DNA of 64,000 bases, taken from the IMG/VR virus record IMGVR_UViG_3300031555_003590, positions 160,001 through 224,000 of that record. One strand, 5' to 3'. This DNA comes from a virus. Lineage: Duplodnaviria > Caudoviricetes. Both the position numbers and the translations under genes were made by a program. A model generated the notes under the pieces. That model ran no database searches and was not told the DNA's origin. It was given only the letters and a program-made list of their open reading frames with translations. Shown here one piece after another: positions 7,464 to 54,900 of the stretch (within the stretch, counting starts at the first letter, position 1; every line of letters starts with the position of its first letter).

Positions 7464-7470
7464 ATATTCA

Positions 7471-7500
7471 ATTAGGAGAGGGAAATTTCCCTCTCCTAAT
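7471..7500. terminator. perfect 30-nt palindrome / terminator
   Basis: attaggagagggaaatttccctctcctaat. Confidence 0.7.
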
Positions 7501-7601
7501 ATTTTATTTTTACATATTATATTTACTTTAAAAGATAAAAAATTCATTTCAATATAATAATCCTAAAATTAAAAATTTAATTTCAGAAAGGAAAATATTT
7601 T

Positions 7602-7937
7602 ATGACTGGTAATGAATATCAAAATCTTGCACTGAGAACTGCTGCAATTCCTAAGGATCAAAAAGAAGATATGCTTCGGCATGCTGTATTTGGTTTAGCT
7701 TCTGAAGCTGGTGAAGTAGCTGGTTTAATGCAGAAAGTATATCAAGGTCGTCCATATGATATTGAACATATGAAAAAAGAATTAGGTGATTGTATGTGGA
7801 TGATCGCTGAAGCATGTTTTGCTTTAGGTTTTACAATGGATGATGTTATGGAATTAAATATTGCAAAATTAAAAGCTAGATTTCCTGAAGGATTTACAGT
7901 TGATAATGATACACATCGTAAAGCTGGGGATATTTAA
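7602..7937 (+). CDS. MazG-like nucleotide pyrophosphohydrolase
   Basis: EYQ..A.RT, GLASEAGEV, KELGDCMW, NIAKLKARFPEGF. Confidence 0.9.
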   Translation: MTGNEYQNLALRTAAIPKDQKEDMLRHAVFGLASEAGEVAGLMQKVYQGRPYDIEHMKKELGDCMWMIAEACFALGFTMDDVMELNIAKLKARFPEGFTVDNDTHRKAGDI

Positions 7938-7958
7938 CAGAAAGGGGAATATATTAAA

Positions 7959-38609: not shown

Positions 38610-38643
38610 ATAATAGAGGGAGCATTATAGCTCCCTCTATTAT
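38610..38643. terminator. bidirectional terminator between convergent units
   Basis: ataatagagggagc-attata-gctccctctattat; 24-nt core identical to 63419..63442. Confidence 0.75.
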
Positions 38644-38644
38644 A

Positions 38645-38809
38645 TTATTTATTATTAGTAACTTGATTAGTTTTCATATCTTCTCTAAGAGGAAGAGTTA
38701 CAGATAGATTCATTACTTCAGAATGAATATTTTCAGGAACATCAGATTCTTTTCGTTCACCTTTTTGAATCAATCTAGCCCAATATTTAATTAGATGACG
38801 TTTAGCCAT
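38645..38809 (-). CDS. small CD1375-like protein
   Basis: Not in ORF track; MAKRHLIKYWARLIQKGERKESDVPENIHSEV...; AAGGAGGT RBS. Confidence 0.6.
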   Translation of the reverse strand: MAKRHLIKYWARLIQKGERKESDVPENIHSEVMNLSVTLPLREDMKTNQVTNNK

Positions 38810-38810
38810 A

Positions 38811-38993
38811 TTAATTACCTCCTTTATATTGTTTTAATGCTTTACGCTCATGACCAGTAGATCTATCATTTTTAATATCATCTTCAATCATTTTAATTAA
38901 TTCATCACGCAATCTACTATCATCAATATCTTTTAAAGATTTTGATCCATTACGAATATATTTTAAATATTCATCTAAAATTTCATTTCTCAT
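38811..38993 (-). CDS. small CD1375-like protein
   Basis: YLKYIRNGSKSLKDIDDSRLRDEL resembles the neighbouring ORF; AAGGAGG RBS. Confidence 0.55.
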   Translation of the reverse strand: MRNEILDEYLKYIRNGSKSLKDIDDSRLRDELIKMIEDDIKNDRSTGHERKALKQYKGGN

Positions 38994-39027
38994 ATATTAA
39001 CCTCCTTTATACATGATTAATTTTGAG

Positions 39028-40164
39028 TTAACTATTAGGGGGAGGTAGTATAAATCCTTGACCCATTCGTAAAGTTAGATTCTTAATATCATCAATTGAA
39101 TTAATATTCATTCGTTCAAACATTGAACGTTTTTTACAGGTATAATTAAATTCATCATCTACAGGAATATATAATCCATCAATATAATGATATTCAGAAG
39201 TTCTACTAAATGCTTTTTCTTTTGCAATACCGCCAAATGCAATCATATTACGATTATCCATTTGATCTTTAGTTTTAGTTTCACTAAGTACAGGATGATC
39301 AATAACAAATTTAGAATATTTATCAGTCAAAAAAATATATGGCCTATCCATATGACGAATAATATCCATCTCATCTAAAGAAAATCCAATATCGCCATAA
39401 TTTAAATGATAATCTTTATTATTATCATTGAATTCTTTAATAATTATGCGGAATTTTTTAGAAATATTATAATAATCTTCTTTATAATTAGGAGATACAG
39501 TCATTCCATCTGGATGTACAATGTTAGCCATTAATTCTAAATCTTCTTTAAAAATATCCCAATTCTTAGGATCTTGACCATTAAACATTGCTACCAAATC
39601 ACAATTAACATATAAACCATGTTTTTGGAATTCGTGTACAATCTCAGCTAATCTTTCAGGACTAACATGAATTCTATTTTGTCCTTTACATGCTTCTTTA
39701 TTGAATGATTGAATACCAATACTAATATGATGATATTTCATTGTATGAATCATAAAATCCATTCTTTCATCAGTCATATCAATAGGATGAATTTCTGTAC
39801 GTCTAATTCCAAATTTATCATAGTTAGGAAATATTTCAGTCATTCTTTTTAATGAATCTAATGTCCATAAACTAGGAGTTCCTCCACCAAAAAACATTTC
39901 AGATATATTTAATTTTCCTATAATTGGAGACATTCTTTCCATCATACGTAGAACAGCATTTTCATATGGAACAATTAAATGTTTATGATCATCATATTTT
40001 AATGCACCAAAAATGCAAAATTTACATACAGAACGACACCATGGATAATGTATATAAATACTTACATCTTCTCCTGCTTTCATTTCATGTTCTTCAAAAT
40101 ATTCTTTCCAAAATTGAACAAAATCATCTTCAGTTAAATATACTGGATATGTATCAAATTTCAA
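39028..40164 (-). CDS. HemN-like radical SAM protein
   Basis: IYIHYPWCRSVCKFC, FGGGTPS, ISIGIQSFN, VNCDL; TTG start. Confidence 0.88.
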   Translation of the reverse strand: MKFDTYPVYLTEDDFVQFWKEYFEEHEMKAGEDVSIYIHYPWCRSVCKFCIFGALKYDDHKHLIVPYENAVLRMMERMSPIIGKLNISEMFFGGGTPSLWTLDSLKRMTEIFPNYDKFGIRRTEIHPIDMTDERMDFMIHTMKYHHISIGIQSFNKEACKGQNRIHVSPERLAEIVHEFQKHGLYVNCDLVAMFNGQDPKNWDIFKEDLELMANIVHPDGMTVSPNYKEDYYNISKKFRIIIKEFNDNNKDYHLNYGDIGFSLDEMDIIRHMDRPYIFLTDKYSKFVIDHPVLSETKTKDQMDNRNMIAFGGIAKEKAFSRTSEYHYIDGLYIPVDDEFNYTCKKRSMFERMNINSIDDIKNLTLRMGQGFILPPPNS

Positions 40165-40166
40165 AT

Positions 40167-40985
40167 TTATTTATCTCCTTTCATTTCATTTACTAATTTA
40201 GCAAACTTTTTTGGAAATGAGCAATGATGTTGAAGTATGCATGGTTTACAAATACTAGCTCTTTCACATGTATAACATTCCATAACCATAGCAGGTTTTA
40301 CATCATGAGGACATTTATGAGTTAATGTCCCATCAGGATTTAATGTATAAACTCCACTACAATCAAAGTACCAATGATTTATTCTATCTGCAATTTCATT
40401 TGGAATATCTGATCTCCATTTAGTATATAATTCACATAAAAAATCGTCTACTCTTTCAAAATATTTTGAATCCATATTTCCATTATAATGTTCTAATTTA
40501 ATACGTTTAAACATTGAAGCATTCCATTGATCAACTATTTTTAAAAAATTATCTACTCCAAAATTAAGAAGATCATCATCCATTGTAATTAATAATGAAG
40601 GTTTTACTTTAGTTATTCCGCTTAATTGTTTGCAATTATTATACCAAACATCATATTGAATTTTAGTAAATCTATTAGGATTCCATGATGTAGCAACACT
40701 ACCTAATTTATTATAATATTCAATTAATTTATCATTCAATATCATTAAATTGGTAGAAATAGATGAAATCTTTTTATTATTAATTTCACATTCATTTATA
40801 ATATCAAACATTCTATCTTGATAGATAGTAGGTTCTCCACCAAATAGAATTATTCTTCCATCAAATGATAATAATTTTTCTAAGAATTTTTCTTTATTAA
40901 AATCATCTTCAAGTTTATATACATCACAATGAGGACAGGATAAATTGCATTGTCTAGTTATTAATGCATATAAAGTTTTTCCCAT
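40167..40985 (-). CDS. radical SAM protein with Cys-rich SPASM-like C-terminus
   Basis: CNLSCPHC, FGGEP, C..YTLNPDG...CP, CYTC.....CKPC.....C. Confidence 0.9.
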   Translation of the reverse strand: MGKTLYALITRQCNLSCPHCDVYKLEDDFNKEKFLEKLLSFDGRIILFGGEPTIYQDRMFDIINECEINNKKISSISTNLMILNDKLIEYYNKLGSVATSWNPNRFTKIQYDVWYNNCKQLSGITKVKPSLLITMDDDLLNFGVDNFLKIVDQWNASMFKRIKLEHYNGNMDSKYFERVDDFLCELYTKWRSDIPNEIADRINHWYFDCSGVYTLNPDGTLTHKCPHDVKPAMVMECYTCERASICKPCILQHHCSFPKKFAKLVNEMKGDK

Positions 40986-41001
40986 ATAATAATACCTCCT
41001 A

Positions 41002-41982
41002 TTATAAAATCCATCCAGATTTAAGGATTCTAGATTCTAATTTTTTCATTTCAGTACAATAATTAGGATCTAATTTTGCTTCAATACGATTAACTTCACA
41101 TCCATTACATAAATTAAATAGTTCACAATATGCGCATTCTTTTGTAATAAAATCATTATAATTAATATGCTCATATTTAGGAATATAATCTGGATTAATT
41201 AATTCATCTTTAGGAATTTCAATACCCATTGATAATTTTTCATCGCATGTTCCAACATGCATAATATCATTATTATCAATATATACACATCTGATTGTAG
41301 AATTGCAAGAATGTTGAATATTATATGGACAAGTCCCCTTATGTCTATATTTACAATTCCATTCATAATCTTCAAGTCCAGCATCAATAATATCTAAATA
41401 ATGTTTCATCATTTTATATCGTTGATAGCCGATAGACTGATAACCAACTCCAACAGCTCTATTCAATTTACAAATAGTACCTAAACGTTTTGCTAATAAA
41501 ATATGATCCATGACAGTATTTTCATTGTCATCATCAATTACTGCAATAAACATTGGAACTCCTTTATCAGGTACATATTTTTTAAAACGTTCAATTACAT
41601 CAATGAACATTTCTTCAGTAAATATAGTATCTTTATTCCATCGTCTAGTATTACCATAATTAAATGAAGTAGTAATTTTAAACCATTTTTCATTAAATAA
41701 TGGAGCCCATTTTTCAGGATGAAGATAAAAATCTTTCAAGTTAGTAGTAGGACTAATATTTACATTAGGCATTAATTCATGTAATTCATAATAATAATCA
41801 GGTTGCATTAATAAAGGTTCTCCACCAGTAATAATAATTGTGGTAGGATTCATTTGTTTAATTAATTCTTTAATCTTATTAGGAACTTTTTCATCTTTAG
41901 GATGTTGAATTGTCATATCACCAGCAGAACAAAATGTACATGAAAAATTACATCTGCCAGTTGGTTTAATAATTAATTCCAT
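41002..41982 (-). CDS. radical SAM/SPASM protein (anSME/peptide-maturase-like)
   Basis: LIIKPTGRCNFSCTFC, TGGEP, CPY.....C, GTC, CAYCELFNLCNGC...C. Confidence 0.92.
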   Translation of the reverse strand: MELIIKPTGRCNFSCTFCSAGDMTIQHPKDEKVPNKIKELIKQMNPTTIIITGGEPLLMQPDYYYELHELMPNVNISPTTNLKDFYLHPEKWAPLFNEKWFKITTSFNYGNTRRWNKDTIFTEEMFIDVIERFKKYVPDKGVPMFIAVIDDDNENTVMDHILLAKRLGTICKLNRAVGVGYQSIGYQRYKMMKHYLDIIDAGLEDYEWNCKYRHKGTCPYNIQHSCNSTIRCVYIDNNDIMHVGTCDEKLSMGIEIPKDELINPDYIPKYEHINYNDFITKECAYCELFNLCNGCEVNRIEAKLDPNYCTEMKKLESRILKSGWIL

Positions 41983-42034
41983 ATATTAATATCCTCCAAT
42001 TAATTCAATATTTTACATAAAATGTTAAAACGAT

Positions 42035-42074
42035 TGATATAGATTATATCCCAAATGGGATATAATCTATATCA
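42035..42074. terminator. 18-bp perfect stem hairpin
   Basis: tgatatagattatatccc-aaat-gggatataatctatatca. Confidence 0.65.
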
Positions 42075-42080
42075 TTAATA

Positions 42081-43316
42081 TTATTGAATCATTGATAAAC
42101 GTTTTAATGCATCAGCAATATCTGCATCAATTTGATTCTGAACTTCTTGATGTAATTTAGTATGAAGTTCTTCCGGTGATAAATTTTCATCATCATTTAT
42201 TTCAGATATCGTATTATTTGTAATATAAAAATCCATCGAAGTTTCATTATTTTTAATATAATTATAAATAGGACCTGAATAATTTTCAGAATATTCAGAT
42301 GGATTTTGTACAGATGATTCTAATTTATCTTTTTCAGCTGAATTAGTAAAAATAAAATATGGATTACAAATATTATTGATTATTTTATACATGTTATCAT
42401 CGGTATTTAAATCAGAAATATGAGCATTAATTATATCACAAGGCCTCATACTAATAAGCATATCACTTTCAATATTATTCTTCATTAAATAAATTACTGC
42501 AGGAATTACAGGTAATTTTAAAAATTGAGCAATGATTAATTTGATATAATCATCATCCGACGCAGATGTAATTTTACCTTGAGAAATTCTAAAATATAGC
42601 GGTGCAGTTAATCCATTTTTACAAATAGATTCAAACATTTCAAATACTTCATCAGTAGTTCTACCTGCAAATCCTAATTCTTTTTTATTAATATCCCAAT
42701 AAAAAATATTTTCAGGGATATCTTGTTTAGAATAATATTCATAAGGAAGATTTACACATAAAGCTGGAAATTTATACATATATTTATTAATTTTAATATC
42801 ATCATAATATACACTTTCTGTAAACATTGCATATTTAATTTCATCTGAAATTGTTCCAAAAGGAAGTGAATCATTATATACTTCAATATCTTTTTCACTT
42901 TGAATTTTAATTTTATCTAATACTTGTCTAAATGGAATTTTACAATTATTTCCATTATAAATGTTTAAAATCATATCAATATTACCAAACTTAACTGCTC
43001 TAAAATAATCAAAAGTAGGAATAAATATATCTGCATTACTAAAATATTCAGATACTTGATATCCATCAACTAGATCTGTATATTTCGATGTATCTGATTC
43101 TTTTAGACCATCTTCATATTTTAATAAAAATTTAGGAAGATTAATTTCTTTTTCAGATAAAATTTGTTTTACTTCATCTGCAGTTAATTTAATTACTTGC
43201 TTTGTAGAACGATGACGAAGAATATCAGTGTTACATTTAGATACAAATGCTTTATCTAATGTCATAACTGGAAGTTTAATTTTAGATTTTAATTCAGAAT
43301 AAATAATATCATTCAT
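42081..43316 (-). CDS. hypothetical protein, possible degenerate ParB/Srx-like domain
   Basis: 411 aa; ESICKNGLTAPL...IAQFLKLPVIPAVI. Confidence 0.7.
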   Translation of the reverse strand: MNDIIYSELKSKIKLPVMTLDKAFVSKCNTDILRHRSTKQVIKLTADEVKQILSEKEINLPKFLLKYEDGLKESDTSKYTDLVDGYQVSEYFSNADIFIPTFDYFRAVKFGNIDMILNIYNGNNCKIPFRQVLDKIKIQSEKDIEVYNDSLPFGTISDEIKYAMFTESVYYDDIKINKYMYKFPALCVNLPYEYYSKQDIPENIFYWDINKKELGFAGRTTDEVFEMFESICKNGLTAPLYFRISQGKITSASDDDYIKLIIAQFLKLPVIPAVIYLMKNNIESDMLISMRPCDIINAHISDLNTDDNMYKIINNICNPYFIFTNSAEKDKLESSVQNPSEYSENYSGPIYNYIKNNETSMDFYITNNTISEINDDENLSPEELHTKLHQEVQNQIDADIADALKRLSMIQ

Positions 43317-44055
43317 CTATATCTACCTCTTCTTCTTGTATTAATAAATTATTTATTTTATCAACAAAATCATTTTGAACATCTTCAGGAGCAAAGAAAA
43401 TATTTAAAAGATTAATAACTGGAAGATTTTTATTAATTCTAGCAATTGAAATTTGATCTTCTCCATCAAAATACTTACTATAAAATTTCATATTAGAAGT
43501 ATCTACATTTTGGAATATAATTCCAAAATATTTTGATATCGTTAAACGTGAGAAATTTTTAAAATTAATTTCATCATAATCAGTATTTTCAAATTCTTCA
43601 TCAAATTCAATCATATCAGATCCAGTCGCACCTGATTTAATATATTTATATATTCCCAATACTGTAAGTGATGCAATTAAATTATATATATTATTAATTA
43701 ATTCTATATTTCTAATTTTAAATAAATCAATTTCACTTGAATTTAAAATTCCAGTAATATCATTATCTAAATATTTAGATAATAAAATATCAATCCATGT
43801 ATCAATCATTTCTTTATTCATACTAGATATATCGCCAGTCATAAACATTAAAATGAATTTCTCTTTATCTTCATATGAACATTTACTGAAGTCTAAATTA
43901 AGATCAAGATCAATATTGCGTAAAAAAATAAATGTTGCTCTAATTTTTACATCATCGTTACAGGGGAATTGTAACTGACTCATATCAACAGGGATGCTTG
44001 TTATATCTGGTAAATCTAATAATGATAAATCAAATGGTAATGTTAAATATTCCAA
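43309..44055 (-). CDS. hypothetical acidic protein in radical SAM cluster
   Basis: 248 aa, TTG start after AGGAGGT, overlaps next gene. Confidence 0.75.
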   Translation of the reverse strand: MEYLTLPFDLSLLDLPDITSIPVDMSQLQFPCNDDVKIRATFIFLRNIDLDLNLDFSKCSYEDKEKFILMFMTGDISSMNKEMIDTWIDILLSKYLDNDITGILNSSEIDLFKIRNIELINNIYNLIASLTVLGIYKYIKSGATGSDMIEFDEEFENTDYDEINFKNFSRLTISKYFGIIFQNVDTSNMKFYSKYFDGEDQISIARINKNLPVINLLNIFFAPEDVQNDFVDKINNLLIQEEEVDIDE

Positions 44056-44080
44056 TAGTGTTACCTCCTATAGAACTTTA

Positions 44081-45340
44081 TTAATCTGAATAACAATCAT
44101 CATGACAATCATCATGACAATCTCGATAACAATTATTATGACATACTGTATGACACATCTCATTAGTGTATTCATAATTATATTTACTAGTATTATTCCA
44201 TGCAGTTAAACATGCACTCAATAATTGAGTAATATTAGTGGCACTAATAACAGAACCAACTTTAATTGAATGAGATACTGCACTACCAGTACTAGTAACA
44301 GTAGTAGTACTATCATATGATGGATAAACACTAGATGGAATAGTATAATTATATACTTTAGTAACAGTAGTTCTAGTTATATAATAATTATAACTTCCTT
44401 TAGAAATAGCATTCCATTGAGTTTCAGTACCAGTATAATTTACAGTAGTTAACGATGAAGTATTATAGAATGATCTTACCCCAATACTAGTAATTGTATT
44501 TGGAATAGTTATTGTATTTAATGCTGTACAATAATAAAAAACATAAGTTCCAATTGTTTTTAATTTATTACCAAGAATTGCAGAAGTTAATGCAGTACAA
44601 TTATAGAATGCATTATTTCCAATAGTAGTAGTATTAGGAGAAAGAGTAATACTAGTTAAAGCAGTACATCCATAAAAAGCTCTATATCCAATACTATATA
44701 CAGTATCAGGCATAATAATAGACTGTAAATTAGTATATCCTTGAAATGCACTATCTGCTATACCCATTACTCTATAATTTCCAACAGTTTCAGGAATAAT
44801 AATTTTAGTTAAACTAAAACATGAATCTTTTACAGGAGTAATAAATCCAGTAGTAGCATCAATAGTAAAATAACTTTCTGGAGTTGTTGTAAAATTAGTT
44901 GTACTAGTTTTATATCCGATGTTACGTACATAATTATTGGTAAAAACAACTTTACCGCTTTTTGTAGCTTTTAGTATATACCTATCATAAATAACTTGTC
45001 CTTTAGTATATCCATTACTATCATGAGTACTTTCTGCAATATGACTTTCATGTAAATATCGTACATATGAAAATGTACCTACTCTAGTAAGATTTTTAGT
45101 AGTATTAATAATAGCATTAGCTAAAGTTGAAGCTGAAATTTTTTGACCAACTATACCAATTTCAGGTGTAGGAAGATTTGATATATCATCCATCATAGTA
45201 GAAGGAACACATTGATATTGACCTTCCATTGGAGGATTTCCTTTATGATATGCATTAGCTTTAATTGTATTTAAAACAGTTGAAGTAAATAAATTAATAA
45301 TATCAGCACGTTTAATAGCACTGCCAGCACTAACAGCCAT
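44081..45340 (-). CDS. probable tail-associated protein with BspA-like LRR insert and C-terminal (C-[H/Y]-x-x)6 tail; candidate radical SAM substrate
   Basis: LRR repeats (L.SI..P.....IG..AFY.CT.L); C-terminus CHTVCHNNCYRDCHDDCHDDCYSD. Confidence 0.75.
   Translation of the reverse strand: MAVSAGSAIKRADIINLFTSTVLNTIKANAYHKGNPPMEGQYQCVPSTMMDDISNLPTPEIGIVGQKISASTLANAIINTTKNLTRVGTFSYVRYLHESHIAESTHDSNGYTKGQVIYDRYILKATKSGKVVFTNNYVRNIGYKTSTTNFTTTPESYFTIDATTGFITPVKDSCFSLTKIIIPETVGNYRVMGIADSAFQGYTNLQSIIMPDTVYSIGYRAFYGCTALTSITLSPNTTTIGNNAFYNCTALTSAILGNKLKTIGTYVFYYCTALNTITIPNTITSIGVRSFYNTSSLTTVNYTGTETQWNAISKGSYNYYITRTTVTKVYNYTIPSSVYPSYDSTTTVTSTGSAVSHSIKVGSVISATNITQLLSACLTAWNNTSKYNYEYTNEMCHTVCHNNCYRDCHDDCHDDCYSD
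44084..44155 (-). repeat. six 12-nt tandem units encoding C-[H/Y]-x-x
   Basis: TGT CAT ACA GTA / TGT CAT AAT AAT / TGT TAT CGA GAT / TGT CAT GAT GAT x2 / TGT TAT TCA GAT. Confidence 0.9.
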
Positions 45341-45432: not shown

Positions 45433-45915
45433 TTAGGCAAAAACTGCATTAAATGCTACCCAAGCATTGCCAGTATAAACTTTAACAAGTTTATTAGCAG
45501 TATCAAACCATACATCTTTATTATTAGTTGGGCTGCTAGGTGCAGTAGCTCCTACAGTAAAACGAATACCACCAACAGTATCTGAATTACCACCACCAGC
45601 AATAAATGTTGTTGGGATACCAGATAGATCTGAATATTTACCAGTATGAGCTACAGTAGATAAACCGGTAATCATAGTATATGGGTGAGTTGCAGGGTGA
45701 GGATTGTTTAATGCTCCAGCTTCGATCCCTGCAAGTTTAGTTTTCTCATTAGTCGTATAATTATTGGTACTGAACCCAGGAGTAGAACCATTAGCCAATC
45801 TATGATTTGATGCACCACCAGAACCTAAATGGTTATCAAAGTCAGTTACAACTTTATCCCATTTATTACGTTCATCAACACTAATATGTTGTTTAATTTG
45901 AGAATTATCAGCCAT
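45433..45915 (-). CDS. short tail-fibre-like protein
   Basis: HISVDERNKWD (shared with 51996..55769), EKTKLAGIEAGA, HPATHP, GATAPSSP...VWFD. Confidence 0.7.
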   Translation of the reverse strand: MADNSQIKQHISVDERNKWDKVVTDFDNHLGSGGASNHRLANGSTPGFSTNNYTTNEKTKLAGIEAGALNNPHPATHPYTMITGLSTVAHTGKYSDLSGIPTTFIAGGGNSDTVGGIRFTVGATAPSSPTNNKDVWFDTANKLVKVYTGNAWVAFNAVFA

Positions 45916-46019: not shown

Positions 46020-49000
46020 TTATCTTACTGCAGTAATATTAATAATTAGATTTTTGCTACCCATACGGAATTCATATATATTATCAACATCAGTACTATT
46101 GATAATTACATTAAAGTCATCAGTACTAAAGTTAATTCCAGTAATAGTAGAATCAGTAATAGTAGCAGTTAAAGTTATAAGATCAGCTTCAAATGCAGCA
46201 TCTAAATCAGATTCAACTGTAACACCATCAATTTGATTAATAGTAATTGTATATTCACTATCTTCAGGTTCAGTTGTGGTTAATTTACGATAAGGAGGAG
46301 CAACAATATAATTTGAAGCCTTTCTCATAAAGATTCGAGCACCAGTACCAATTATTGGTACACCATTTGTAAACATATCAGAAGCACTATATACAGTTGA
46401 GAATGTCTGACCATTTGTACCAACATTGATAGCAGCTTGTTTATTAATTGTAACATTAGAAACCATTGAATTACAATCACGCATAAATAGATCCATACTA
46501 TTATCGCCAGTTATATTATCAGGAATTTTAATTGGTTTATTAAATGCATGGCATTCAGTCATAAAATTACGTAAACAAGCTTTTCCAGAAATTCCTTCAG
46601 GAATAGTAATAGATTGGTTAAATGATTTACAACACATCAAAAATCTTTCAAGACAACCATCACCAGTTACAACATCAGGAATTTTAATCGGTTTATTAAA
46701 GCTAGTACATCCATAAAGGAATCCATGTAAACAATTACTTCCATAAATATTTTCAGGAATAATTACATTAGAATTGAAACTAGTGCAATTTCTCATGAAA
46801 TATTTTAGACATCTATCTCCACCAACACTATCAGGAATAGTAATAGACTGATTGAAATTTGTACATCCCATTAGGAAGTTTCTTAAACAATCATCACCAT
46901 GCACAGTAGTTGGAATATGATTTAAAGATGTTAGATTAATGAAATTACGACCAAAATTTCGTAAAGAAGAAATATGAGGTTCATCTTCATTATATGCATC
47001 AACTAATATAATTTCACAAGAATTAGATATATTTCCACAAGTAACTGTAACTGTTAGAGTATTCCCAACAGACTCATTCATACCAATATAAAGTTCTGCA
47101 GATAATTTATCATCAGATGGAGTTATTTGAGTTCCACTAAAGAATAGGAATCCTTCATCAGTAGCACCTGATACAGACCATTCAATATTATCAATTGAAT
47201 CATTTACAATTGAATCATCAGTACCAAGTAATGATATGTTGAAGTTTACAGAAGTACTCGAGTAATCTTTGTAAATAGTTTTTGATACAGCATCCATATT
47301 AATAGCATAAATTTTACTTTCATAATCAGATGTATCTCCGACAGAAATTAACAGTTTCTTATTATAATCACTATTAATACCAAATCCATCATTAATAGTT
47401 GCATCAAGTATCATATATCCAGAATTATTACCTGCTAGAATTAAATAGGTTGAACTTGCATCACTTGTAGGAATATTAAGCAATTTAGTTCCATCAGGAA
47501 TCTCAGTTGCATCCCAAATAATAGTTTTATTAGTTGTATTAGTAGGAGTAATAGTAGTAATTTCAGATAAGTTTAGATATTTAGTATTATCAATTTCTCT
47601 TCCATATACATCAATTAATTTATTATCAGAAGTAAATATTGTACCATCTTCAAATAAAACATATCCATTTGGTAATCTAATATAATTTCTTACAGTTGCT
47701 ATAGAATTAACTTCTTCTAATACTTCTAATGAACTAATTTCATCAATATTAAATGTAATATCACTTAAAATACAGATTTGATTAGAAGAATCGATATATG
47801 CACCATAAGGAAGATTAATATTGACATCACCATCTTGGTTAGTTCCTAATTCAGTAATTCCGCTATCAATATTATATGTATATTCATCAGGAAGTTTAAT
47901 TGATGTTCCATTTTTAATTGTGGTTGTATCAGGAAGTAATACAATATCGTTTTTATAATCAATTACAATACCATGAGTTGTAATACGATATAATATTTCT
48001 CCATGAGTATAATCTATTTCAGGATCATAATCAAATATAATATTAGCATTAGTTAATGGATCATTACCAATGGTACCAATAGTAATATTATTCCATTCTT
48101 CTTCAGTACCAGTATATTTTATTGTAGTTAGATTAACACATTCTGCAAATGCATTGTCACTAATACCAGTAACAAGTATGCCTAAAATTACTTTTGGAAT
48201 AATAATTTCACTATATTCTTTAGCCTTTTTAATTACTCCGCTAATAGTACCGGATTCGTCAATAATTACAAGAATTTCTTCTCCAGTAGGAACAATTAAA
48301 TCACCATTTGTATCAAGAATAGTACCAATTGGAATTTCAACTAAACTATTATCATATCTAATAAATGTATCAGGGAATTGAATTAATTTAGGATCAACTG
48401 TAAATATAGTATCAGCATATTTTAGATTTAGAATTAAATCTTCTTCATCAGAATTATTATATCTAATTAATGTACCATCTGAATGCATAAATATATTATT
48501 AGGAAGAAAATGCATTCCATAAAATGAATTATCTGCATCTATAGATATACAACCATCTTGATTATCAGATGGAGTAACATCAGCAAATGAAGATTTTTCA
48601 ATTTCAGGTTCTATAAATTCATATGTTTCAATTTTATCATTAGATAAAGTAATATCTGTAACAGGTACAGTATTATCTTCATGAGTACTTTCAGTCCAGA
48701 ATTCAACTGCTGTAATTTGATCTTTACGGAAAGTTGTACCATCAATAGTAATTGTAGAATCTGAAGGTAGATCTGTACAAAGATTATTTAAATCAGCCAT
48801 ACTATATACTTTAACATTAGCTCCAGTGTTAAGAGTTAAAGTTAAAATAGGATTAGTATAAGTGGTATCTTGTGCAATTGCTCTTATAGTAAATAATTTA
48901 GTATAAGAATCACCAGCTTGACTTAAATCATACCAATCAATTGCATCACCTTGACCATTCTGTACAGATGCCTGAATAGTAAATTCGCCAGGATGATCAC

Positions 49001-51977
49001 AATAAATAATATTATTTGTATCTCCTTTTAATACTGCACCAGCATTATTAGGATATTGATCTTGATCAAAATGAACATCATCCATTCTCCAGATTAAATC
49101 AGTATAACTAGGAACTTCTTCATCCCAAGTAGGATTATGATACCCAATACCACCATTTGTTTCAAGTTCACCAGATATAATAAAATCTTTACCTACAGGA
49201 ATTTCTAATGGTACATTAGAAACATCTTTAATTGCAATGAATGGAGGAAGTGTTTCAATTGTATAATTTTGAGAATAATCTTCACCAGGACTAGGTCCAA
49301 GACCAAATGGAACTTTTAAAGTGATATTAATTTTACCAGGGTCATATGGGAATAAATAATTTTCTTCTCTAGCCCAATCAAAGAAATCACTTATAGCTTT
49401 ATGGCTAAATGTAGTTTTGGCAGGATTAAAGATAATGCTATCTGCTCCACCATATTCTTGAGCTCTAGAAGATCTCCACTGTAATGTTGGTGCAGAAGCA
49501 TTCCAAGGATATACCACAGATTGATCAAGTAAAACTGGATAATGACAACGCAATGGTTTAGGAAGTTTAAGTTCAACATTTGTAATAGGAACATAAACGT
49601 CTTTTGCTGCAGGAGGAATAATTTTAATACCTGCAGTTATACTGAAATCCTTTCCTTCATTATATCCATCAACAATAGTCAGTTTCATAACAACTAAAGG
49701 TTCCATATCAGAAGTCATGTTATGAGGATCGATTTGAATAGTATTATTAGAAGAATCAAATATAGCATTTGCAACACTAGCATCAATCATTTCCATAATA
49801 ACAGTAGTTTTAGTTGCATTAGATGGTGTTACTGTTGTACTTAAAGTAATAGGAGCACCATTAGTTGTATTTGGATCATATTCAGTAGGATTAAGTTCAA
49901 TATTTTCAACTGGAACCCATGCAGCTTCAACTTTAAAAGTGAAACTTTTAACAAAATTTTGTGAAGAACCTTTACCATTTAAAACTGTTGCAGTTAATGT
50001 AAATTCACCAGTTCCAGTAAAACTAATTACTCCATCATTAATAGCAGCACCTGTAGATCCTGGAGATGAAATATTAAAAATAATATCACGATTATCAGCA
50101 TCATCAGGTGAAACTTTACCAGATAGAATAATAGTATTATCTGCTCTAATAGTAGATGGAAAATTTACTAAAGTAATATCAGTTACAGGAACAAATGCTT
50201 TTGCAATAGTAACAACAAATTCTTTACTAAAATCAAGATTTGGAGAAATACCTTTAGCTACTGTAGCTTTAAGTTTTAAAGTACCAGCTGCTTCAGCTAA
50301 TAATTTATTTCCACTACTAATAGTAGCACCTGTACTACCTGCATCAATAATAGACCATGTAATAGTTTTAGCCGATGCAGTTGATGGTGAAACTGTACCA
50401 GTTAAAGTAGAAGTAACACCAGCAGTTGCATTTGTTAATAATCCAGTAATATCAGTTACTGATACATATGTTGGTACATTAATATCAATTGTATCTTCAT
50501 ATAAACCATCTATAGTAGTAGCAGTAATAGTAACATCACCTTCATGAATTGAAAGAGCATTACCATTTTCATCAATCTGAATTACATTAGAATCACTGGA
50601 TTTCCAAACTACTTTTGGTTTAGTTGCATTAGTAGGAGTAATACTAATATCAAATTTTTGTTCACTACCAAGTATCATAGAACTAATATTAGGTGTAATG
50701 GTAATTGATTTTAATTCAATATTAACAGTTACTTGAGACATAGTAGTTCGTACAGTAGTTGCACCAGGACTACTAACTTCACAATAGTAATAGTAAACTC
50801 CTGCTTCAATATTTGAAGGAATTTCATAAGTAGCTTTATTTCCATTAGCAACAGCAATAGCCCCGCTAAAAGAATTAACATGATTGCGATACCATTTATA
50901 TGATATGATACCATTATCCGATTTTGCACTAACATAAATAGATTGATCAATAGAACCGTGTACTAGTGCAACCTGCTCAGTAGGTTGTGCTATAATGCTA
51001 ATTGTATTTGGTTTTGCATAGATACTGAAGTCTTTACTAAAATTACCTCCTTCTTCACTAGCTCCACCAACAACAGTACCACGTAGTACAATATCACCAG
51101 TAGTATTAGCTGTTAAACTATCTCCATTAATTGTTGCATCTCCAGATACAATAGTCCATGTAATACCTTGTACAGTTGAATCAGTAGGAAATACAGTACA
51201 AGGAGATAGATCAACTTTAAGACCTGCAGTTATAGTTTCAGGAACATTAAGAATATCAGTTACTGGGACAAATTCAGGCTCTATAACAATTATTTTGATA
51301 TTAAAACTAGCATTAGCACTACGATAAACAATTATACATGGAGAGTTAGATGGATAAGGAGTTTCCATATCAAATTTAATTACTGCATTATCACTATTAG
51401 TAGCAACAACTTCAGGATTTTTAAGATTGATAATAGAACCATCGCCCATTCTAGCTCCCCAATGATCATCTCCTGCTGAAATAGTAAATTCAATATCAGC
51501 AAGTTGTAAAGGAAATGGAATAGTGGCAATTAAACGATCAACTAATCCATTTTCATATTTACCACCGTTATATCCTTCAGTAGTAAATGCAAAATGACCA
51601 CTTAATGTATTTTCACTAAATGGTCTTTCATCTCCTGTATGCTCTTTGATATTAAATGTTGCAGTATCACTTCTATATACAAGAGTACAAGGAGAATTAG
51701 CGGCATATGCTGTAGCCATATCAAATTCAACGATACTATTATCGCGATTCTGATATAATACTTTAGGATTGGAAAGGGGGATGATAGAACCATCCCCCAT
51801 TTGAGCACCCCAATCCTCGGCACCGCTAGAAATTATAAAATCTACATCAACATTTTGAAGTTGATATACTATAGAAAAAATGCATTTCTTAACACTACCG
51901 GTTGAATCACTTTTAATTCCATCTAAACCGTCTAGTGTAAATCCATAATAACCGGTACGTTGATTAATCAGTGCCAT
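46020..51977 (-). CDS. giant adhesin-like tail fibre / receptor-binding protein (Ig-like repeats, LRR cap, DUF285-like repeats), 1985 aa
   Basis: ATG 51977 after AGGAGGTGA; recurring FVPVTDI..P.NAT.K...W Ig-like units; 26-aa repeats LRNFLMGCTNFNQSITIP near C-terminus. Confidence 0.75.
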   Translation of the reverse strand: MALINQRTGYYGFTLDGLDGIKSDSTGSVKKCIFSIVYQLQNVDVDFIISSGAEDWGAQMGDGSIIPLSNPKVLYQNRDNSIVEFDMATAYAANSPCTLVYRSDTATFNIKEHTGDERPFSENTLSGHFAFTTEGYNGGKYENGLVDRLIATIPFPLQLADIEFTISAGDDHWGARMGDGSIINLKNPEVVATNSDNAVIKFDMETPYPSNSPCIIVYRSANASFNIKIIVIEPEFVPVTDILNVPETITAGLKVDLSPCTVFPTDSTVQGITWTIVSGDATINGDSLTANTTGDIVLRGTVVGGASEEGGNFSKDFSIYAKPNTISIIAQPTEQVALVHGSIDQSIYVSAKSDNGIISYKWYRNHVNSFSGAIAVANGNKATYEIPSNIEAGVYYYYCEVSSPGATTVRTTMSQVTVNIELKSITITPNISSMILGSEQKFDISITPTNATKPKVVWKSSDSNVIQIDENGNALSIHEGDVTITATTIDGLYEDTIDINVPTYVSVTDITGLLTNATAGVTSTLTGTVSPSTASAKTITWSIIDAGSTGATISSGNKLLAEAAGTLKLKATVAKGISPNLDFSKEFVVTIAKAFVPVTDITLVNFPSTIRADNTIILSGKVSPDDADNRDIIFNISSPGSTGAAINDGVISFTGTGEFTLTATVLNGKGSSQNFVKSFTFKVEAAWVPVENIELNPTEYDPNTTNGAPITLSTTVTPSNATKTTVIMEMIDASVANAIFDSSNNTIQIDPHNMTSDMEPLVVMKLTIVDGYNEGKDFSITAGIKIIPPAAKDVYVPITNVELKLPKPLRCHYPVLLDQSVVYPWNASAPTLQWRSSRAQEYGGADSIIFNPAKTTFSHKAISDFFDWAREENYLFPYDPGKINITLKVPFGLGPSPGEDYSQNYTIETLPPFIAIKDVSNVPLEIPVGKDFIISGELETNGGIGYHNPTWDEEVPSYTDLIWRMDDVHFDQDQYPNNAGAVLKGDTNNIIYCDHPGEFTIQASVQNGQGDAIDWYDLSQAGDSYTKLFTIRAIAQDTTYTNPILTLTLNTGANVKVYSMADLNNLCTDLPSDSTITIDGTTFRKDQITAVEFWTESTHEDNTVPVTDITLSNDKIETYEFIEPEIEKSSFADVTPSDNQDGCISIDADNSFYGMHFLPNNIFMHSDGTLIRYNNSDEEDLILNLKYADTIFTVDPKLIQFPDTFIRYDNSLVEIPIGTILDTNGDLIVPTGEEILVIIDESGTISGVIKKAKEYSEIIIPKVILGILVTGISDNAFAECVNLTTIKYTGTEEEWNNITIGTIGNDPLTNANIIFDYDPEIDYTHGEILYRITTHGIVIDYKNDIVLLPDTTTIKNGTSIKLPDEYTYNIDSGITELGTNQDGDVNINLPYGAYIDSSNQICILSDITFNIDEISSLEVLEEVNSIATVRNYIRLPNGYVLFEDGTIFTSDNKLIDVYGREIDNTKYLNLSEITTITPTNTTNKTIIWDATEIPDGTKLLNIPTSDASSTYLILAGNNSGYMILDATINDGFGINSDYNKKLLISVGDTSDYESKIYAINMDAVSKTIYKDYSSTSVNFNISLLGTDDSIVNDSIDNIEWSVSGATDEGFLFFSGTQITPSDDKLSAELYIGMNESVGNTLTVTVTCGNISNSCEIILVDAYNEDEPHISSLRNFGRNFINLTSLNHIPTTVHGDDCLRNFLMGCTNFNQSITIPDSVGGDRCLKYFMRNCTSFNSNVIIPENIYGSNCLHGFLYGCTSFNKPIKIPDVVTGDGCLERFLMCCKSFNQSITIPEGISGKACLRNFMTECHAFNKPIKIPDNITGDNSMDLFMRDCNSMVSNVTINKQAAINVGTNGQTFSTVYSASDMFTNGVPIIGTGARIFMRKASNYIVAPPYRKLTTTEPEDSEYTITINQIDGVTVESDLDAAFEADLITLTATITDSTITGINFSTDDFNVIINSTDVDNIYEFRMGSKNLIINITAVR

Positions 51978-51995
51978 ATTGGTACTCACCTCCTA

Positions 51996-54900
51996 TTAGA
52001 CTTCTTTAACATTAATCCATGCTTTATTAGTACGATATACTAGTTGGCAAGGAGAGTTTGCAGGGTATGGAGTTTCCATAATAAATTGTACGATTGCATT
52101 TGTATTAGTGATTTCAATGATAGTAGGATCGGATAAACGAATATAACTACCATCGCCCATACGTGCTGCCCAAGCTCCTTCAACTTCAGAAATAGTAACT
52201 TCAACATTACCAGACTTAGGAGTATAATTTATATTAAACCATACAGTATTTACTTGTCCATTTTCATCTGATACAGTTGAAACTCCATCAGAATTATTTA
52301 CAGTTGTACCACTATGACCAGATAGCTGATTAATTACCATTTCAGCAGTATCATCATCGCTACCATCACCAGTTGCAGGTTTACCAGGACCAATGTTAAT
52401 ACCATCAGGACCACCAATACCAGTTCCAGGTACAGGATTAATTAATCTCCAATATGTTCCATCAAAGGTAAACATATGAGTATGATTTTTACCAAGCATA
52501 CCAGTTGTTAGAGGGGCTCCTGCAAATAAAATTACTGCAGCACCAGTATCATTGACATTTAAAGTAGTATCAAGTTCACCACTACGATCTTCATTAGCAA
52601 ATGTAATTGCAACAGTAGTACCAATTTGTCTCATGAATACTACAGGATCCATATATGTAGAACGTAGAGTTGCAACCTTATTTGGATTACCACTTGCAGT
52701 GGCAGATTCACCATTACTTACACCAACTAAATTTCTACGTACCCATTCAGATGAAACAAATGCATTAGAATTATCATCATCTGGTAAAGTATGGGTACCA
52801 GAAGGATTCTCTAATCTCCAATTATTACCATCAAAGGTAAATGTGTAAGTATGATTTGCTTTAATCATACCATTTATAATTGGTTTACCACCATAAATAA
52901 TCATTGCATTACCGCTACCATGTACATTCATATACACATTTTCAGTAGCAAGATCATCTTCAGCGAAATTAACTACTACAGTACTACCAGTTTGTCTCAT
53001 GAATACTGGATTTTCCATAAAGTCAGATCTTAAAGTTACTACTTTAATATTATTAGCACTTTCAGTTTCACAATCACCAAATTGAACACCAACTGCATTT
53101 CGTCTAATCCATGCAGTAGTTGCAATGCGATTATCATTAGAATTATCAGGGGCAATTACAGCTCTAGGTTCTCCAGTTAATTCAGTAATATCATGAGTAG
53201 TATCAGGGAAATGAACAGGAGCACGAGTTTCATCAGTTGGATGTCTATGATCACCTCTAGCATATGTACCATCATCAGTGCCACGGAATACAGTTCCATC
53301 CATTAAAGGATCAATATCAGCTGCTTTAGTATGACCAAATAGACTAATAGTGGCTCTACCAAAAGTAGATGCAGAAGGTGAAGTATGAACTCTAGGTGCT
53401 TTAGTTAGCTCTAGCATACGACCCATATTCGCGGATAATGCAGCTAAAGAATTAGTAGATTCAAGATTATCAATAACATCTACAGATTCAAGGTCATTAA
53501 TAATCTCCATAATATCATTTACATCAACTTTATTCTGATTTAAAATTCTACCCATATTTGCAGATAGGGGTCTATCAGTTTCATAAGAAATTAAATTATC
53601 AACTACTTGTTTTCTTACAAATTCAGTAGTTGCAATACGAGTAGATTTATCAGTAACAGGTTGAGTAGTAGTAGTTGGAGAACCCGGTAAATTGGTAGAA
53701 GGTTTAATTTCATCTTCACTAATAGTACCAGGAAGAACAGATGCTTTGATACTATTATCATCAAGAACTTCAACTTGAACATTTTTACTCATACTACCAG
53801 TATAAACTTTAATCATAGAACTAATATCAATTCTATTTTCATTTCCATCAGGTAGTAGAATTACTAATTCACCTTCATTGGCATCAAAGGTAATATTTTT
53901 AAATACTTCAGTAATTGGAATTTGAATAGATTTTTCAGTACCATTTTTATATATGAAAGTAAGAGTAGTAGTTGAATCATTCCATTCAACATCATCAACA
54001 AAGTTGATTAAAGTAATATCACCTGTAACAGTACCAATTTTATCTAATAGATCATCTAATGCTTCCTGTACAGCGTTAGAAATAGGCTTATCCATATCAG
54101 AAGTATTATTAACATTTCCTAATCCAATTTGCTGAGCAGTAACATTATGAGGATTATAGAAATTCTGAGTATGATCAGTAAATGTGGCTACTGGAACTGC
54201 ACCAATTTGAGTAGCAGTAGTTCTATGAGGATTACTATAATCATTAATATGTTCATATAGATCTTCTTTAATTGAATCTATACCACCATTACCAGTAATC
54301 TTTTCAAGAATTTCAGTAACATTATCATTTACAATTTCAAATTGACGAGTGGCTGCTCTTTGAGTAATAAAACCATCTTCATTATCTCCAAGCTCATTAT
54401 ACCATTCAGGACGTCCTTTAATCATATCCCAACTGACAATTCCGGAAGGTAAACCATCTCCGCCAATAATTAAATCTCCAAGTACATCCATAATACCACG
54501 CCAAGTAGTATCATAATTGGAGTCTGTCATTTTAACTAAAACTTCACCAGTTAAACCACCAATTGGAACTCCTTGGCCATTAGTACCATCAAAATAGTCA
54601 ACCCCTTTAATTGGAGTATAACCATCTTTTCCTTTAATAATATAAGGACCAGGTGCAGTAGTTTCTTTAGATTTAACCCATGAAAGTTCACCAGTAGTTT
54701 CATCAAATACTGGACGCCACATCATATCACTATTACTAGAACCAGTATCAGTGTCTCCACTATTATCATTATTACCACCAGCAAATAGACCAGTAAATCT
54801 ACCCTGTACCCAAACATACATTGCAGTATCAGGATATCTAATTACTAAATCTCCTACTTTCATTGCTTGGAAACCAACCTCTTGCCAAACCATACCAGGA

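Follow-up and report, generated by a model that had tools for sequence, protein, structure and literature searches.

Radical SAM (rSAM) enzymes are known to mature released peptides and a few cellular proteins, and no case has been reported in which they mature a part of a virion. Among the described systems closest to the locus studied here is the HXS antiphage system, in which the HxsB/HxsC pair of rSAMs, together with HxsD, matures HxsA (Li et al., Nat Commun 2026, PMC13128918). Other comparable chemistries are those of the triceptide maturases (YhhB, XyeB, and AmcB), which are SPASM-type rSAMs acting on repeated aromatic-x-x triads, and of ranthipeptide/SCIFF enzymes such as CteB and PapB, the latter acting on the Cys-X3-Asp repeats of freyrasin. 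The rSAMs anSME, with sulfatases, and QhpD, with QhpC, act on a real protein rather than a released peptide. A literature search returned no published description of a phage system that joins a Cys-His tail to rSAM enzymes, in line with the initial annotation of this DNA, which knew of no characterised system of its kind.

The window analysed here is a stretch of 64,000 nucleotides from the 292-kb genome of a phage known from an uncultured metagenome record. On its minus strand, three fibre-like genes are followed by the gene for a 419-aa protein, two genes without an assigned family, two SPASM-like rSAM genes, a HemN-like rSAM gene, and two tiny ORFs (Table 1). An ORF check returned the same coordinates and strand that the initial annotation had given, and the three tail-fibre genes it had placed upstream on the same strand proved fibre-like by matches to Phage_fiber_rpt, Big_2, and, for the 160-aa product, by weak tail-fibre PHROG matches. 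It was also right that no peptidase or exporter lies nearby, as family searches of the nine genes gave neither a peptidase nor a transporter. The hairpin ahead of the first enzyme gene may set the ratio between upstream and enzyme genes. We read the one beyond the small ORFs as a bidirectional terminator because it sits between a convergent chaperonin gene and the cassette.

Table 1. Features of the cassette and the adjoining fibre genes, in window coordinates
Feature	Position	Strand	Basis
1257-aa tail-fibre protein, first of fibre block	51996..55769	-	Pfam Phage_fiber_rpt, E 3e-12
1989-aa fibre or adhesin-like protein	46020..51989	-	Pfam Big_2, E 1.4e-11
160-aa fibre-like protein, adjoins Cys-His-tailed gene upstream	45433..45915	-	weak matches to PHROGs 24456 and 21412
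419-aa Cys-His-tailed protein, proposed substrate	44081..45340	-	family with Atu_ph07 gp170
419-aa protein: conserved N-domain, aa 1-143	44912..45340	-	AF2 model, complex model, conserved columns (A3)
419-aa protein: BspA-type LRR insertion, aa 194-307	44420..44761	-	Pfam LRR_5, E 4.9e-33
419-aa protein: six C-[H/Y]-x-x units, aa 396-419, proposed modified core	44084..44155	-	translation, DNA pattern
248-aa protein, family F1, proposed docking/chaperone partner	43309..44055	-	synteny, complex model
411-aa clade-specific protein	42081..43316	-	ParB/Srx-like lead only
18-bp-stem hairpin between 411-aa gene and first enzyme gene	42035..42074	.	hairpin prediction
326-aa rSAM, subfamily A, cassette core enzyme	41002..41982	-	Pfam Radical_SAM, 60.0 bits
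272-aa rSAM, subfamily B	40167..40985	-	Pfam Radical_SAM, 37.6 bits; phrog_1802
378-aa HemN-like (class C type) rSAM, clade-specific extra	39028..40164	-	Pfam Radical_SAM, 50.2 bits
Two small ORFs (60 and 54 aa), end of transcription unit	38645..38993	-	phrog_1382 for 54-aa ORF only
Terminator-like hairpin	38610..38643	.	14-bp stem, then T-rich run

The 419-aa protein ends, as annotated, in six C-[H/Y]-x-x units (MCHTVCHNNCYRDCHDDCHDDCYSD), in which each Cys is followed in turn by H-T-V, H-N-N, Y-R-D, H-D-D, H-D-D, and Y-S-D. A DNA pattern for three such units matched three times in the window, always within 44093..44155, and never in 100 shuffles. Profile alignment of the window clade with the canonical family (hhalign 99.1%, E 4.2e-19), in which 180 columns span the stretch between N-terminus and repeats, gives the protein full-length homology to a widespread phage family that includes gp170 of phage Atu_ph07. 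Cys-His-tailed proteins of this family (PHROG 35144 and relatives) are defined by an N-domain, a C-terminal helix, at least two C-terminal C-H-x-x units, and neighbouring genes for F1 and a subfamily A rSAM; the PHROG search gave no match to phrog_35144 itself, and membership of the window protein follows from homology, synteny, and residues C396, C400, and H401, which are invariant across the aligned family. The usual RGRR end is missing from its tail.

Across the family the carrier is a folded protein of 130-440 aa rather than a short peptide, with a conserved N-domain, a C-terminal helix, and C-H-x-[S/N/D] units that make up a disordered tail. The AF2 model of the window protein (pLDDT 77.5) has two helices and a long hairpin in the N-domain, and residues 398-419 of the tail are predicted to be disordered (pLDDT <50). 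The BspA-type LRR insertion occurs only in the window phage and its closest relatives and is missing from 22 of 24 aligned members. The repeat unit is conserved in 156 distinct tails: position 2 is His (474 units) or Tyr (7) and never Phe or Trp, and position 4 is Ser (381), Asn (61), Ala (16), or Asp (12).

Cys-His tails and rSAM genes are linked almost obligately, whichever of the two is used for the search. A forward search with the 326-aa rSAM found 282 relatives in IMG/VR and kept 80 loci, 38 of them with full 10-kb flanks. In 46 of the 80, an ORF terminates in three or more C-[H/Y]-x-x units, and about 35 of the 38 fully flanked loci had a tailed gene within 10 kb when variant tails were counted; one such locus (L012) has the enzymes and no tailed gene within that distance. 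The reverse search fetched 120 loci solely by the DNA pattern CHxxCHxxCHxxRxRR-stop and found rSAM genes of the family in 97, F1 in 101, and one or the other in 110, the remaining 10 loci all being 7.2 kb or shorter. The initial annotation had staked its core idea on such enzyme trios not occurring apart from a CHxx neighbour, and the idea stands with a tailed gene near the enzymes in about 35 of 38 loci.

The pairing recurs in hundreds of large phages of soil, sea, and gut, in cassettes of 6-14 kb, and the order of rSAM, tailed gene, F1, and further rSAMs is fixed from jumbo phages of Pseudomonas, Ralstonia, and Agrobacterium to gut-type low-GC phages. The conserved core consists of two rSAM subfamilies and the 248-aa protein: subfamily A is single copy in 88 of 89 loci, subfamily B is present in 75 of 89 at E <1e-20, and F1 occurs as one copy in 67 of 89, with 31 of these loci having it immediately after the tailed gene. 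The HemN-like gene was found in only three distinct loci, so the rSAM trio of the initial annotation is not a conserved unit; this gene and the 411-aa gene, whose family occurs in nine low-GC loci and always after F1, are clade-specific. The expected company of tail-fibre genes held only for the low-GC clade (8-11 loci), where family F26 of the 1257-aa protein lies upstream of the cassette in 8 low-GC loci, family F25 of the 1989-aa protein occurs in 8 loci, and family F16 of the 160-aa protein precedes the tailed gene in 11, even with the enzyme block inverted (L005); in most clades fibre genes do not adjoin the cassette. Canonical cassettes spend 4-8 rSAM enzymes plus several oxygenases on a core of just 12 residues, which suggests that other substrates or products may exist. 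The RSF1 cluster also contains a dihydrofolate reductase gene. Set against these, the window cassette is a minimal variant from low-GC phages, with no RGRR end, no oxygenases, and an LRR insertion.

All three window enzymes score above the Pfam Radical_SAM (PF04055) cut-off of 29.5 bits and carry a cluster motif (CNFSCTFC, CNLSCPHC, and CRSVCKFC). Two had been annotated as SPASM-type. Both have CX3CX2C at the start and CX2CX5CX2C in a Cys-rich end, and SPASM peptide maturases are among their structural neighbours; Pfam SPASM (PF13186) was unmatched at E up to 0.01, and a SPASM/twitch region is defined by CX9-15GX4C ... CX2CX5CX3C ... C as recognised by PF13186 or TIGR04085. The 326-aa enzyme has 278 homologues at E <1e-5, and nine further Cys residues, including the CX2CX5CX2C set, are kept in 19 of 19 aligned homologues. 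Viral clusters apart, the Atlas structures closest to it belong to SPASM proteins such as MftC (TM 0.69), and in some near viral clusters 12-72% of members carry PF13186. The searches found no recognisable RRE (peptide-recognition) domain in the enzymes and no curated maturase family above cut-off. The 378-aa enzyme was rightly called HemN-like, as HemN-type entries lead its matches in both NCBIfam and PDB (1OLT, E 5.9e-13, aa 18-212). By these alignments it is HemN-like in its core only: equivalog matches cover aa 10-223, and membership was rejected for HemN (71.6 versus 324.95 bits), HemW (60.6 versus 205.4), and ChuW (70.4 versus 400).

The likeness to HXS is one of design: a full-size protein with tandem His-x-Ser-type units, an rSAM pair, and a small non-enzymatic partner binding one rSAM. 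Each canonical phage tail unit contains H-x-S, and HxsC is the best, though weak, NCBIfam match of both window enzymes. However, membership in HXS (HxsA-D, TIGR03976-03979) was rejected on scores of 30.8 and 24.0 bits against 267.9 for HxsC and 18.9 and 17.0 against 370 for HxsB, and the HxsD model was matched by neither the 248-aa nor the 411-aa protein. HXS is a bacterial defence with a periplasmic, peptidoglycan-anchored, N-terminally cleaved effector, whereas the phage system is phage-encoded, has period-four units with an invariant Cys, and has a homologue of its substrate in virions; the substrate lacks a signal peptide and a peptidoglycan-binding domain and, in the window, carries the LRR.

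The window units also fit the aromatic-x-x triads of triceptides, with His and Tyr interchanging. Triceptide precursors, however, are short and released, in contrast to the folded, retained phage carrier, and Phe and Trp are absent from the aromatic position of the phage units; with a 419-aa carrier and window-enzyme scores of 15-26 bits against cut-offs of 425-445 (NF041707 YhhB, 22.9 versus 445; NF041718 AmcB, 25.9 versus 425), this assignment was rejected. Cys-x-x-Asp/Asn/Ser repeats are plausible sites for SPASM thioethers like those of ranthipeptides, but the phage spacing is one residue shorter (Cys-X2-Asp/Asn), the carrier is a retained protein, and the 272-aa enzyme scores 18.0 bits against a PapB (NF047865) cut-off of 340. 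The anSME motif C/S-x-P/A-x-R was also rejected: the window tail has one Arg (CYRD, +2), no Cys is followed by Arg at +4, and Pro and Ala are absent from +2. Canonical tails have Arg at +4 in the last unit only, and the window shows this basic end to be dispensable. No sulfatase or quinohemoprotein context was found at the locus.

Neither the 248-aa nor the 411-aa protein belongs to a Pfam or NCBIfam family. The F1 model (pLDDT 92.9) matches no solved fold, and because its alignment contains only one invariant residue, F1 is probably not an enzyme. A complex model places F1 on the conserved N-domain of the 419-aa protein (residues 7-30, 64-87, and 123-143) with a score of 0.74, against 0.00 for the best control; runs shared at least 39% of contacts, with partner pLDDT of at least 79. 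Among solved complexes 58 of 80 attained that mark, and among mismatched pairs 2 of 110 did, counts that are approximate because our own alignments were used here. We propose from this model that F1 is a docking or chaperone partner of the substrate. The 411-aa protein has no PDB sequence match, and its ParB/Srx-like Atlas feature score of 0.85 serves as a lead only.

Direct evidence from virus particles comes from gp170 of the Agrobacterium phage Atu_ph07, a distant homologue (about 20% identical) of the window protein. This 296-aa protein (computed mass 31,894 Da; table value 31,89 kDa) appears in the published virion proteome with 8 unique peptides and 35% coverage and reaches its highest abundance in the topmost gel band; the table does not include gp165, gp168, gp169, gp171, or gp172 (PMC6102473 Suppl. 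Table S5). The initial annotation saw the tail as fused to a retained structural protein of the fibre or baseplate. Retention is supported by a full-length homologue in virions from which the adjacent enzymes are missing, but the position near the tail or fibres is one that we infer.

The 419-aa protein represents this family in low-GC phages, and we put at roughly 0.6 the probability that it is the dedicated substrate of the adjoining rSAM enzymes. Because the pairing is so recurrent and a homologue is found in the virus particle, the Cys-His tail is probably modified enzymatically. F1 is predicted to dock on the conserved N-domain and would present the tail to the SPASM-like subfamily A and B enzymes, each of which would cleave SAM and abstract a hydrogen atom within a unit. 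A bond could then form between a side-chain carbon at position 4 and either the His or Tyr ring, giving a cyclophane by analogy with HxS repeats and triceptides, or the sulfur of Cys, giving a thioether as in ranthipeptides. The HemN-like enzyme of the window clade may add a step, perhaps methylation. The N-domain would stay on, and the matured protein would enter the particle, probably near the fibres, with the LRR insertion exposed. The window cassette has subfamilies A and B alone and encodes neither a cupin nor a 2OG oxygenase, a make-up that would fit a host living without oxygen. Somewhat short of even odds is the broader reading that large phages use dedicated rSAM enzymes to cross-link the tail of a host-contact virion protein. 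In that reading the cross-links could connect positions of one chain or join separate subunits and might create a metal-binding site, and the essential elements would be the A/B pair and the C-[H/Y]-x-[S/N/D] unit rather than the RGRR end or oxygenases.

One alternative is that the Cys-His(/Tyr)-x-Asp/Ser tail works unmodified, as a metal- or iron-sulfur-binding motif that staples the fibre end with ions or serves as a metal or cluster donor or scaffold for rSAMs with another substrate. Ions bound by His occur in other phage fibres and spikes (T4-type fibres), and the Cys, His, Tyr, and Asp of the conserved positions are classical metal ligands. A purely aromatic cross-link site ought to accept Phe or Trp at position 2, the enzymes of canonical cassettes far outnumber three units, and gp170 runs far above its own mass on SDS gels, like stable fibre oligomers. 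Yet a passive site leaves the near-obligate linkage to SPASM-type enzymes and F1 unexplained, a cofactor donor is not expected in purified virions without the enzymes, and the tail is predicted to be disordered; we regard an unmodified tail as unlikely. We think it less probable again that the tail is a scaffold for a small product of the PQQ, mycofactocin, or pearlin type, modified, released, and acting in the infected cell, with the N-domain as a large leader. The layout is leader-like, with an N-domain bound by a partner in the model and the core at the extreme C-terminus, canonical cassettes offer many tailoring enzymes, and the mycofactocin maturase is among the closest non-viral structural neighbours. 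Against release stand the lack of a peptidase or exporter in the window or the conserved core, the presence of gp170 as a virion protein, and the N-domain itself, whose full-length conservation and gain of an LRR here suggest a function of its own.

That the genes are merely adjacent, the tailed gene belonging to a fibre module and the rSAMs working in the metabolism of nucleotides, DNA, or cofactors, seems very improbable. The dihydrofolate reductase gene of RSF1 and weak MoaA-, QueE-, and NrdG-type matches of the enzymes point that way, but these matches cover only the generic N-terminal cluster-binding segment and fall far below cut-offs. The linkage runs in both directions over hundreds of loci and wide host ranges, and the tailed gene travels with the enzymes even in clades without adjacent fibre genes.

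Enzymatic cross-linking of the tail, if true, would give the first known virus particle with a RiPP-type modification made by enzymes. Keeping so large a cassette in so many phages is costly enough to imply strong selection in its favour, with fibre stability, metal binding, or host recognition as possible gains. The proposal is directly testable in the cultured carriers Atu_ph07, RSF1/RSL2, and Pseudomonas phage pPa_SNUABM_DT01, and the window offers a natural minimal version of two enzymes, one partner, and six units that narrows the essentials to a simple set for reconstitution. It may also shed light on bacterial HXS defence, where the modification is still undefined. At the end of the transcription unit, the label CD1375-like given to the two small ORFs was not upheld: family searches returned nothing above cut-off for the 60-aa ORF, and the sole match of the 54-aa ORF is phrog_1382 (function not assigned; E 6.2e-6). 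In a related locus (L004), two 68-aa ORFs take the place of this pair.

Radical SAM enzymes are already known to mature proteins; what this cassette would add, judging from its sequence, is a virion protein as the target. The initial annotation had proposed that the radical SAM cluster modifies a virion protein with a repeat tail, here the 419-aa protein that ends in six C-[H/Y]-x-x units. That claim depends on the enzymes keeping a tailed neighbour, and a two-way survey of IMG/VR found this neighbourhood to be kept. In the forward direction, a profile built from homologues of the 326-aa enzyme (A1) retrieved 282 relatives, of which 80 loci were kept, and 46 of the 80 contain an ORF with at least three terminal units. 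Full 10-kb flanks were available for 38 loci: about 35 of these have a tailed ORF when variant tails are counted, two more have a gene order that leaves the locus end, and one (L012) has no tailed ORF. In the reverse direction, a DNA pattern for CHxxCHxxCHxxRxRR-stop matched at least 120 stretches; across 120 of them, radical SAM genes of the family were present in 97, a homologue of the 248-aa protein (family F1) in 101, and either in 110, and the other 10, each 7.2 kb or shorter, had neither.

Relatives in IMG/VR were reached by the A1 alignment alone: the single 326-aa protein as query found 0. The 6.7-kb region itself had no megablast match in the phage collection. Full-length homologues of the 326-aa enzyme, about 32% identical, are encoded by Pseudomonas phage pPa_SNUABM_DT01, Ralstonia phage RSF1 and Agrobacterium phage Atu_ph07, each within a multi-radical SAM cluster that also holds a "hypothetical" protein of 178 to 296 aa ending in ...CHTSCHTSCHSARGRR, ...CHSSCHSSCHGSRGRR or ...CHSSCHASCHNSRSRR. 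Closer relatives lie on long metagenome contigs. L004 shares the architecture of the window, with an enzyme 75% identical, and L005 retains a 244-aa tailed protein behind fibre genes, with the enzyme block inverted. All four contigs matched in a scan of representative genomes come from metagenome bins, so no host can be named.

The window tail reads CHTV-CHNN-CYRD-CHDD-CHDD-CYSD, and matches to the DNA pattern of the unit are confined in the window to the 419-aa gene (0 in 100 shuffles). Tailed proteins can be aligned end to end and share an N-terminal helix, an N-x-P segment, a second helix with a long hairpin, and a C-terminal helix followed by the units; the LRR insertion is restricted to the window protein and L004. 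The window clade aligns with the canonical family, the tailed proteins of other large phages, at an hhalign probability of 99.1% (E 4.2e-19, 180 columns). Canonical members make up PHROG 35144, of unknown function, and the family has no Pfam entry. In 156 distinct tails, a set biased because 120 loci came through the three-unit RxRR pattern, three units occur in 149 and an RGRR end in 129; at position 2, His fills 474 units, Tyr 7 and Phe or Trp none, and position 4 holds Ser 381 times, Asn 61, Ala 16 and Asp 12. The window tail, where five of the six units have Asp or Asn as their fourth residue and a basic end is missing, is an outlier of a type common only to its closest relatives. An RGRR end is thus not essential to the action of the A (326-aa type) and B (272-aa type) enzymes, nor is an anSME-like C-x-x-x-R reading. 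The L005 tailed protein has just 7 homologues in a large protein collection, which indicates a fast-evolving family. When the model of the 419-aa protein was searched against viral structures, LRR proteins dominated, and the 296-aa Atu_ph07 protein appeared at E 0.024.

The source record is 292,119 bp long and complete according to CheckV, and with a window G+C of about 27% and a GroEL-like gene it is that of a jumbo phage. The gene order and repeat tail of the initial annotation stand, while its "CD1375-like" label for the small ORFs found no confirmation. The internal hairpin splits the 419-, 248- and 411-aa genes from the enzyme genes, and might be a transcription attenuator or RNA processing mark that tunes the ratio of substrate to enzyme. 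Matches to sigma-70-type promoters were fewer than in shuffles and are uninformative. The chaperonin gene also adjoins the cassette in L004 and L007, and its product might aid folding of fibre or cassette proteins.

Features of the cassette and of related loci (genes of the cassette in minus-strand order; positions in related loci are those of the locus)
Feature	Place or position	Strand	Remarks
1257-aa fibre protein	1st	-	Phage_fiber_rpt
1989-aa protein	2nd	-	Big_2
160-aa fibre-like protein	3rd	-	
419-aa protein	4th	-	BspA-type LRR domain and Cys-His tail
248-aa protein	5th	-	family F1
411-aa protein	6th	-	
326-aa radical SAM protein	7th	-	
272-aa radical SAM protein	8th	-	
378-aa HemN-like radical SAM protein	9th	-	
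Two small ORFs	last	-	
Terminator-like hairpin	38610-38643		end of cassette transcription unit
Strong hairpin, perfect 18-bp stem	42035-42074		in 98-nt gap between 411-aa gene and first radical SAM gene
635-aa GroEL-like chaperonin	36695-38602	+	phrog_5725, E 6.5e-65; convergent with cassette
F27 member, L005	9037-9975		no Pfam family
F27 member, L007	12129-13085		no Pfam family
F27 member, L013	12952-13962		no Pfam family
F27 members, L026 and L036			no Pfam family
Probable insertion, L002 (RSF1)	6864-7980		two dihydrofolate reductase genes and an HNH endonuclease gene between cassette radical SAM genes
Tailed protein, L015	7386-8180		three CHxx units, then long Cys/Lys/Arg-rich extension replacing the short end
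Tailed protein, L007/L008	9036-9881		degenerate tail (CHEDCHNNWSDSHSN...) where subfamily A enzyme stands alone

Clustering of 1,681 ORFs from 89 loci shows what the cassettes have in common. Radical SAM genes average 3.6 per locus: subfamily A is single copy and present in 88 of the 89 loci, followed by B (75), C (70), D (60) and a multicopy group E (32). F1, also single copy, occurs in 67 loci, 31 of which have it directly 3' of the tailed gene; 63 loci encode a 138-aa unknown, 48 encode 2OG-Fe(II) oxygenases and 47 cupin/JmjC proteins. The 411-aa protein is restricted to low-GC loci (n=9) and the HemN-like gene to three distinct loci. With A, B and F1, the clade-specific 411-aa and HemN-like genes and no oxygenase, the window holds a minimal version of the cassette, and the lack of oxygen-dependent enzymes would fit an anaerobic host.

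Both smaller enzymes carry CX3CX2C and a Cys-rich C terminus with CX2CX5CX2C; neither matches Pfam SPASM, and the structures nearest to them in the Atlas, viral clusters aside, belong to SPASM proteins, the mycofactocin maturase among them (TM 0.69). Curated maturase models matched only a generic N-terminal segment, with scores far under the cut-offs, and the HemN-like protein matched E. coli HemN (1OLT) in its core only. For the 272-aa enzyme the PDB also gave the designed protein Scone-E, a spurious match. The closest described system is HXS, a bacterial defence in which two radical SAM enzymes and a small partner mature an HxS-repeat protein (PMC13128918). Every test for HXS membership was negative, as were those for triceptide, PapB, anSME and HemN, by score or motif, and the phage cassette serves the virus whereas HXS serves the host. 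In the literature searched on radical SAM genes of jumbo phages, phage-encoded RiPPs and virion cyclophanes, such genes are mentioned at annotation level only.

The 248-aa protein is modelled with high confidence (pLDDT 92.9). Foldseek had no PDB match up to an E of 1, the highest VIA-align Z over 48,161 chains was 3.1, and the best Atlas TM was 0.37; on this model no solved fold matches and the fold cannot be named, which does not imply a novel fold. A tblastn search of isolate phages gave no match. The family has a single invariant residue, which argues against catalysis. Modelled together with the 419-aa protein it scored 0.74 (median of three runs) versus 0.00 for the best control. Of 80 solved complexes 58 attained that mark, as did 2 of 110 mismatched pairs; given our own alignments, these counts hold only roughly here. 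The runs had at least 39% of contacts in common and a partner pLDDT of at least 79, and the interface falls on the conserved N-domain of the 419-aa protein (aa 7-30, 64-87 and 123-143), with the tail excluded. These models predict that F1 is a docking or chaperone protein taking the place of a leader-recognition element. The 411-aa protein falls into none of the Pfam, NCBIfam or PHROG families, and its profile has no PDB sequence match; its likeness to ParB/Srx is an Atlas lead alone (0.85).

Proteomics of Atu_ph07 places a canonical tailed protein in the particle. Gp 170 is listed at 31,89 kDa, on 8 unique peptides and a sequence coverage of 35.16% (Suppl. Table S5, PMC6102473), and the computed mass of the tailed protein, 31,894 Da, makes the identification secure. 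Absent from that table are the radical SAM proteins gp165, gp168 and gp171, the F1 homologue gp169 and the cupin gp172. Gp 170 was found in gel bands 1-9 with its peak in band 1, where the 127-kDa gp20 also runs and the 87-kDa gp197 peaks; proteins of 137 and 118 kDa peak in band 2 (PMC6102473). That a 32-kDa protein collects in the top band of the SDS gel is suggestive of a very stable or covalent oligomer.

Gene linkage, homology and the presence of a homologue in virions point to substrate maturation as the most likely function. F1 is predicted to grip the folded N-domain of the tailed protein, and the disordered tail would enter the A and B enzymes. There, every unit would gain a cross-link that joins the His/Tyr ring with the side chain at position 4, as in triceptides or HxS repeats, or the Cys sulfur with a side-chain carbon, as in ranthipeptides; given two enzymes, both types could be made. 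The HemN-like enzyme may methylate, and the matured protein would enter the particle near the fibres.

Other accounts of the same genes can be weighed beside this one. A tail that binds metal through unmodified residues, to be judged along with the radical SAM genes at its side, we consider unlikely. Release of a product from the tail, to be set beside the recovery of gp170 from virions, seems somewhat less probable still, and coincidental adjacency of tailed gene and enzymes, to be set beside the two-way survey, is very improbable.

Variants among relatives touch both substrate and enzymes. In the long metagenome contigs L007 and L008, a degenerate tail accompanies a single enzyme, which hints, in this one clade, that unit number tracks enzyme content. 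In low-GC relatives the cassette comes with a protein family of 300-435 aa with a C-x3-C-x2-C-x2-C end (F27), which the window lacks, and a U32-type assignment for the Cys-rich 312-318-aa protein of L005 and L007 was rejected for want of a Pfam match. The dihydrofolate reductase and HNH genes of RSF1 are probably an insertion. Five marine IMG/VR contigs (L056, L059, L076, L081 and L088) encode small tailed proteins (about 99-128 aa) in two tandem genes, with a 350-366-aa unknown (F7) between these and F1.
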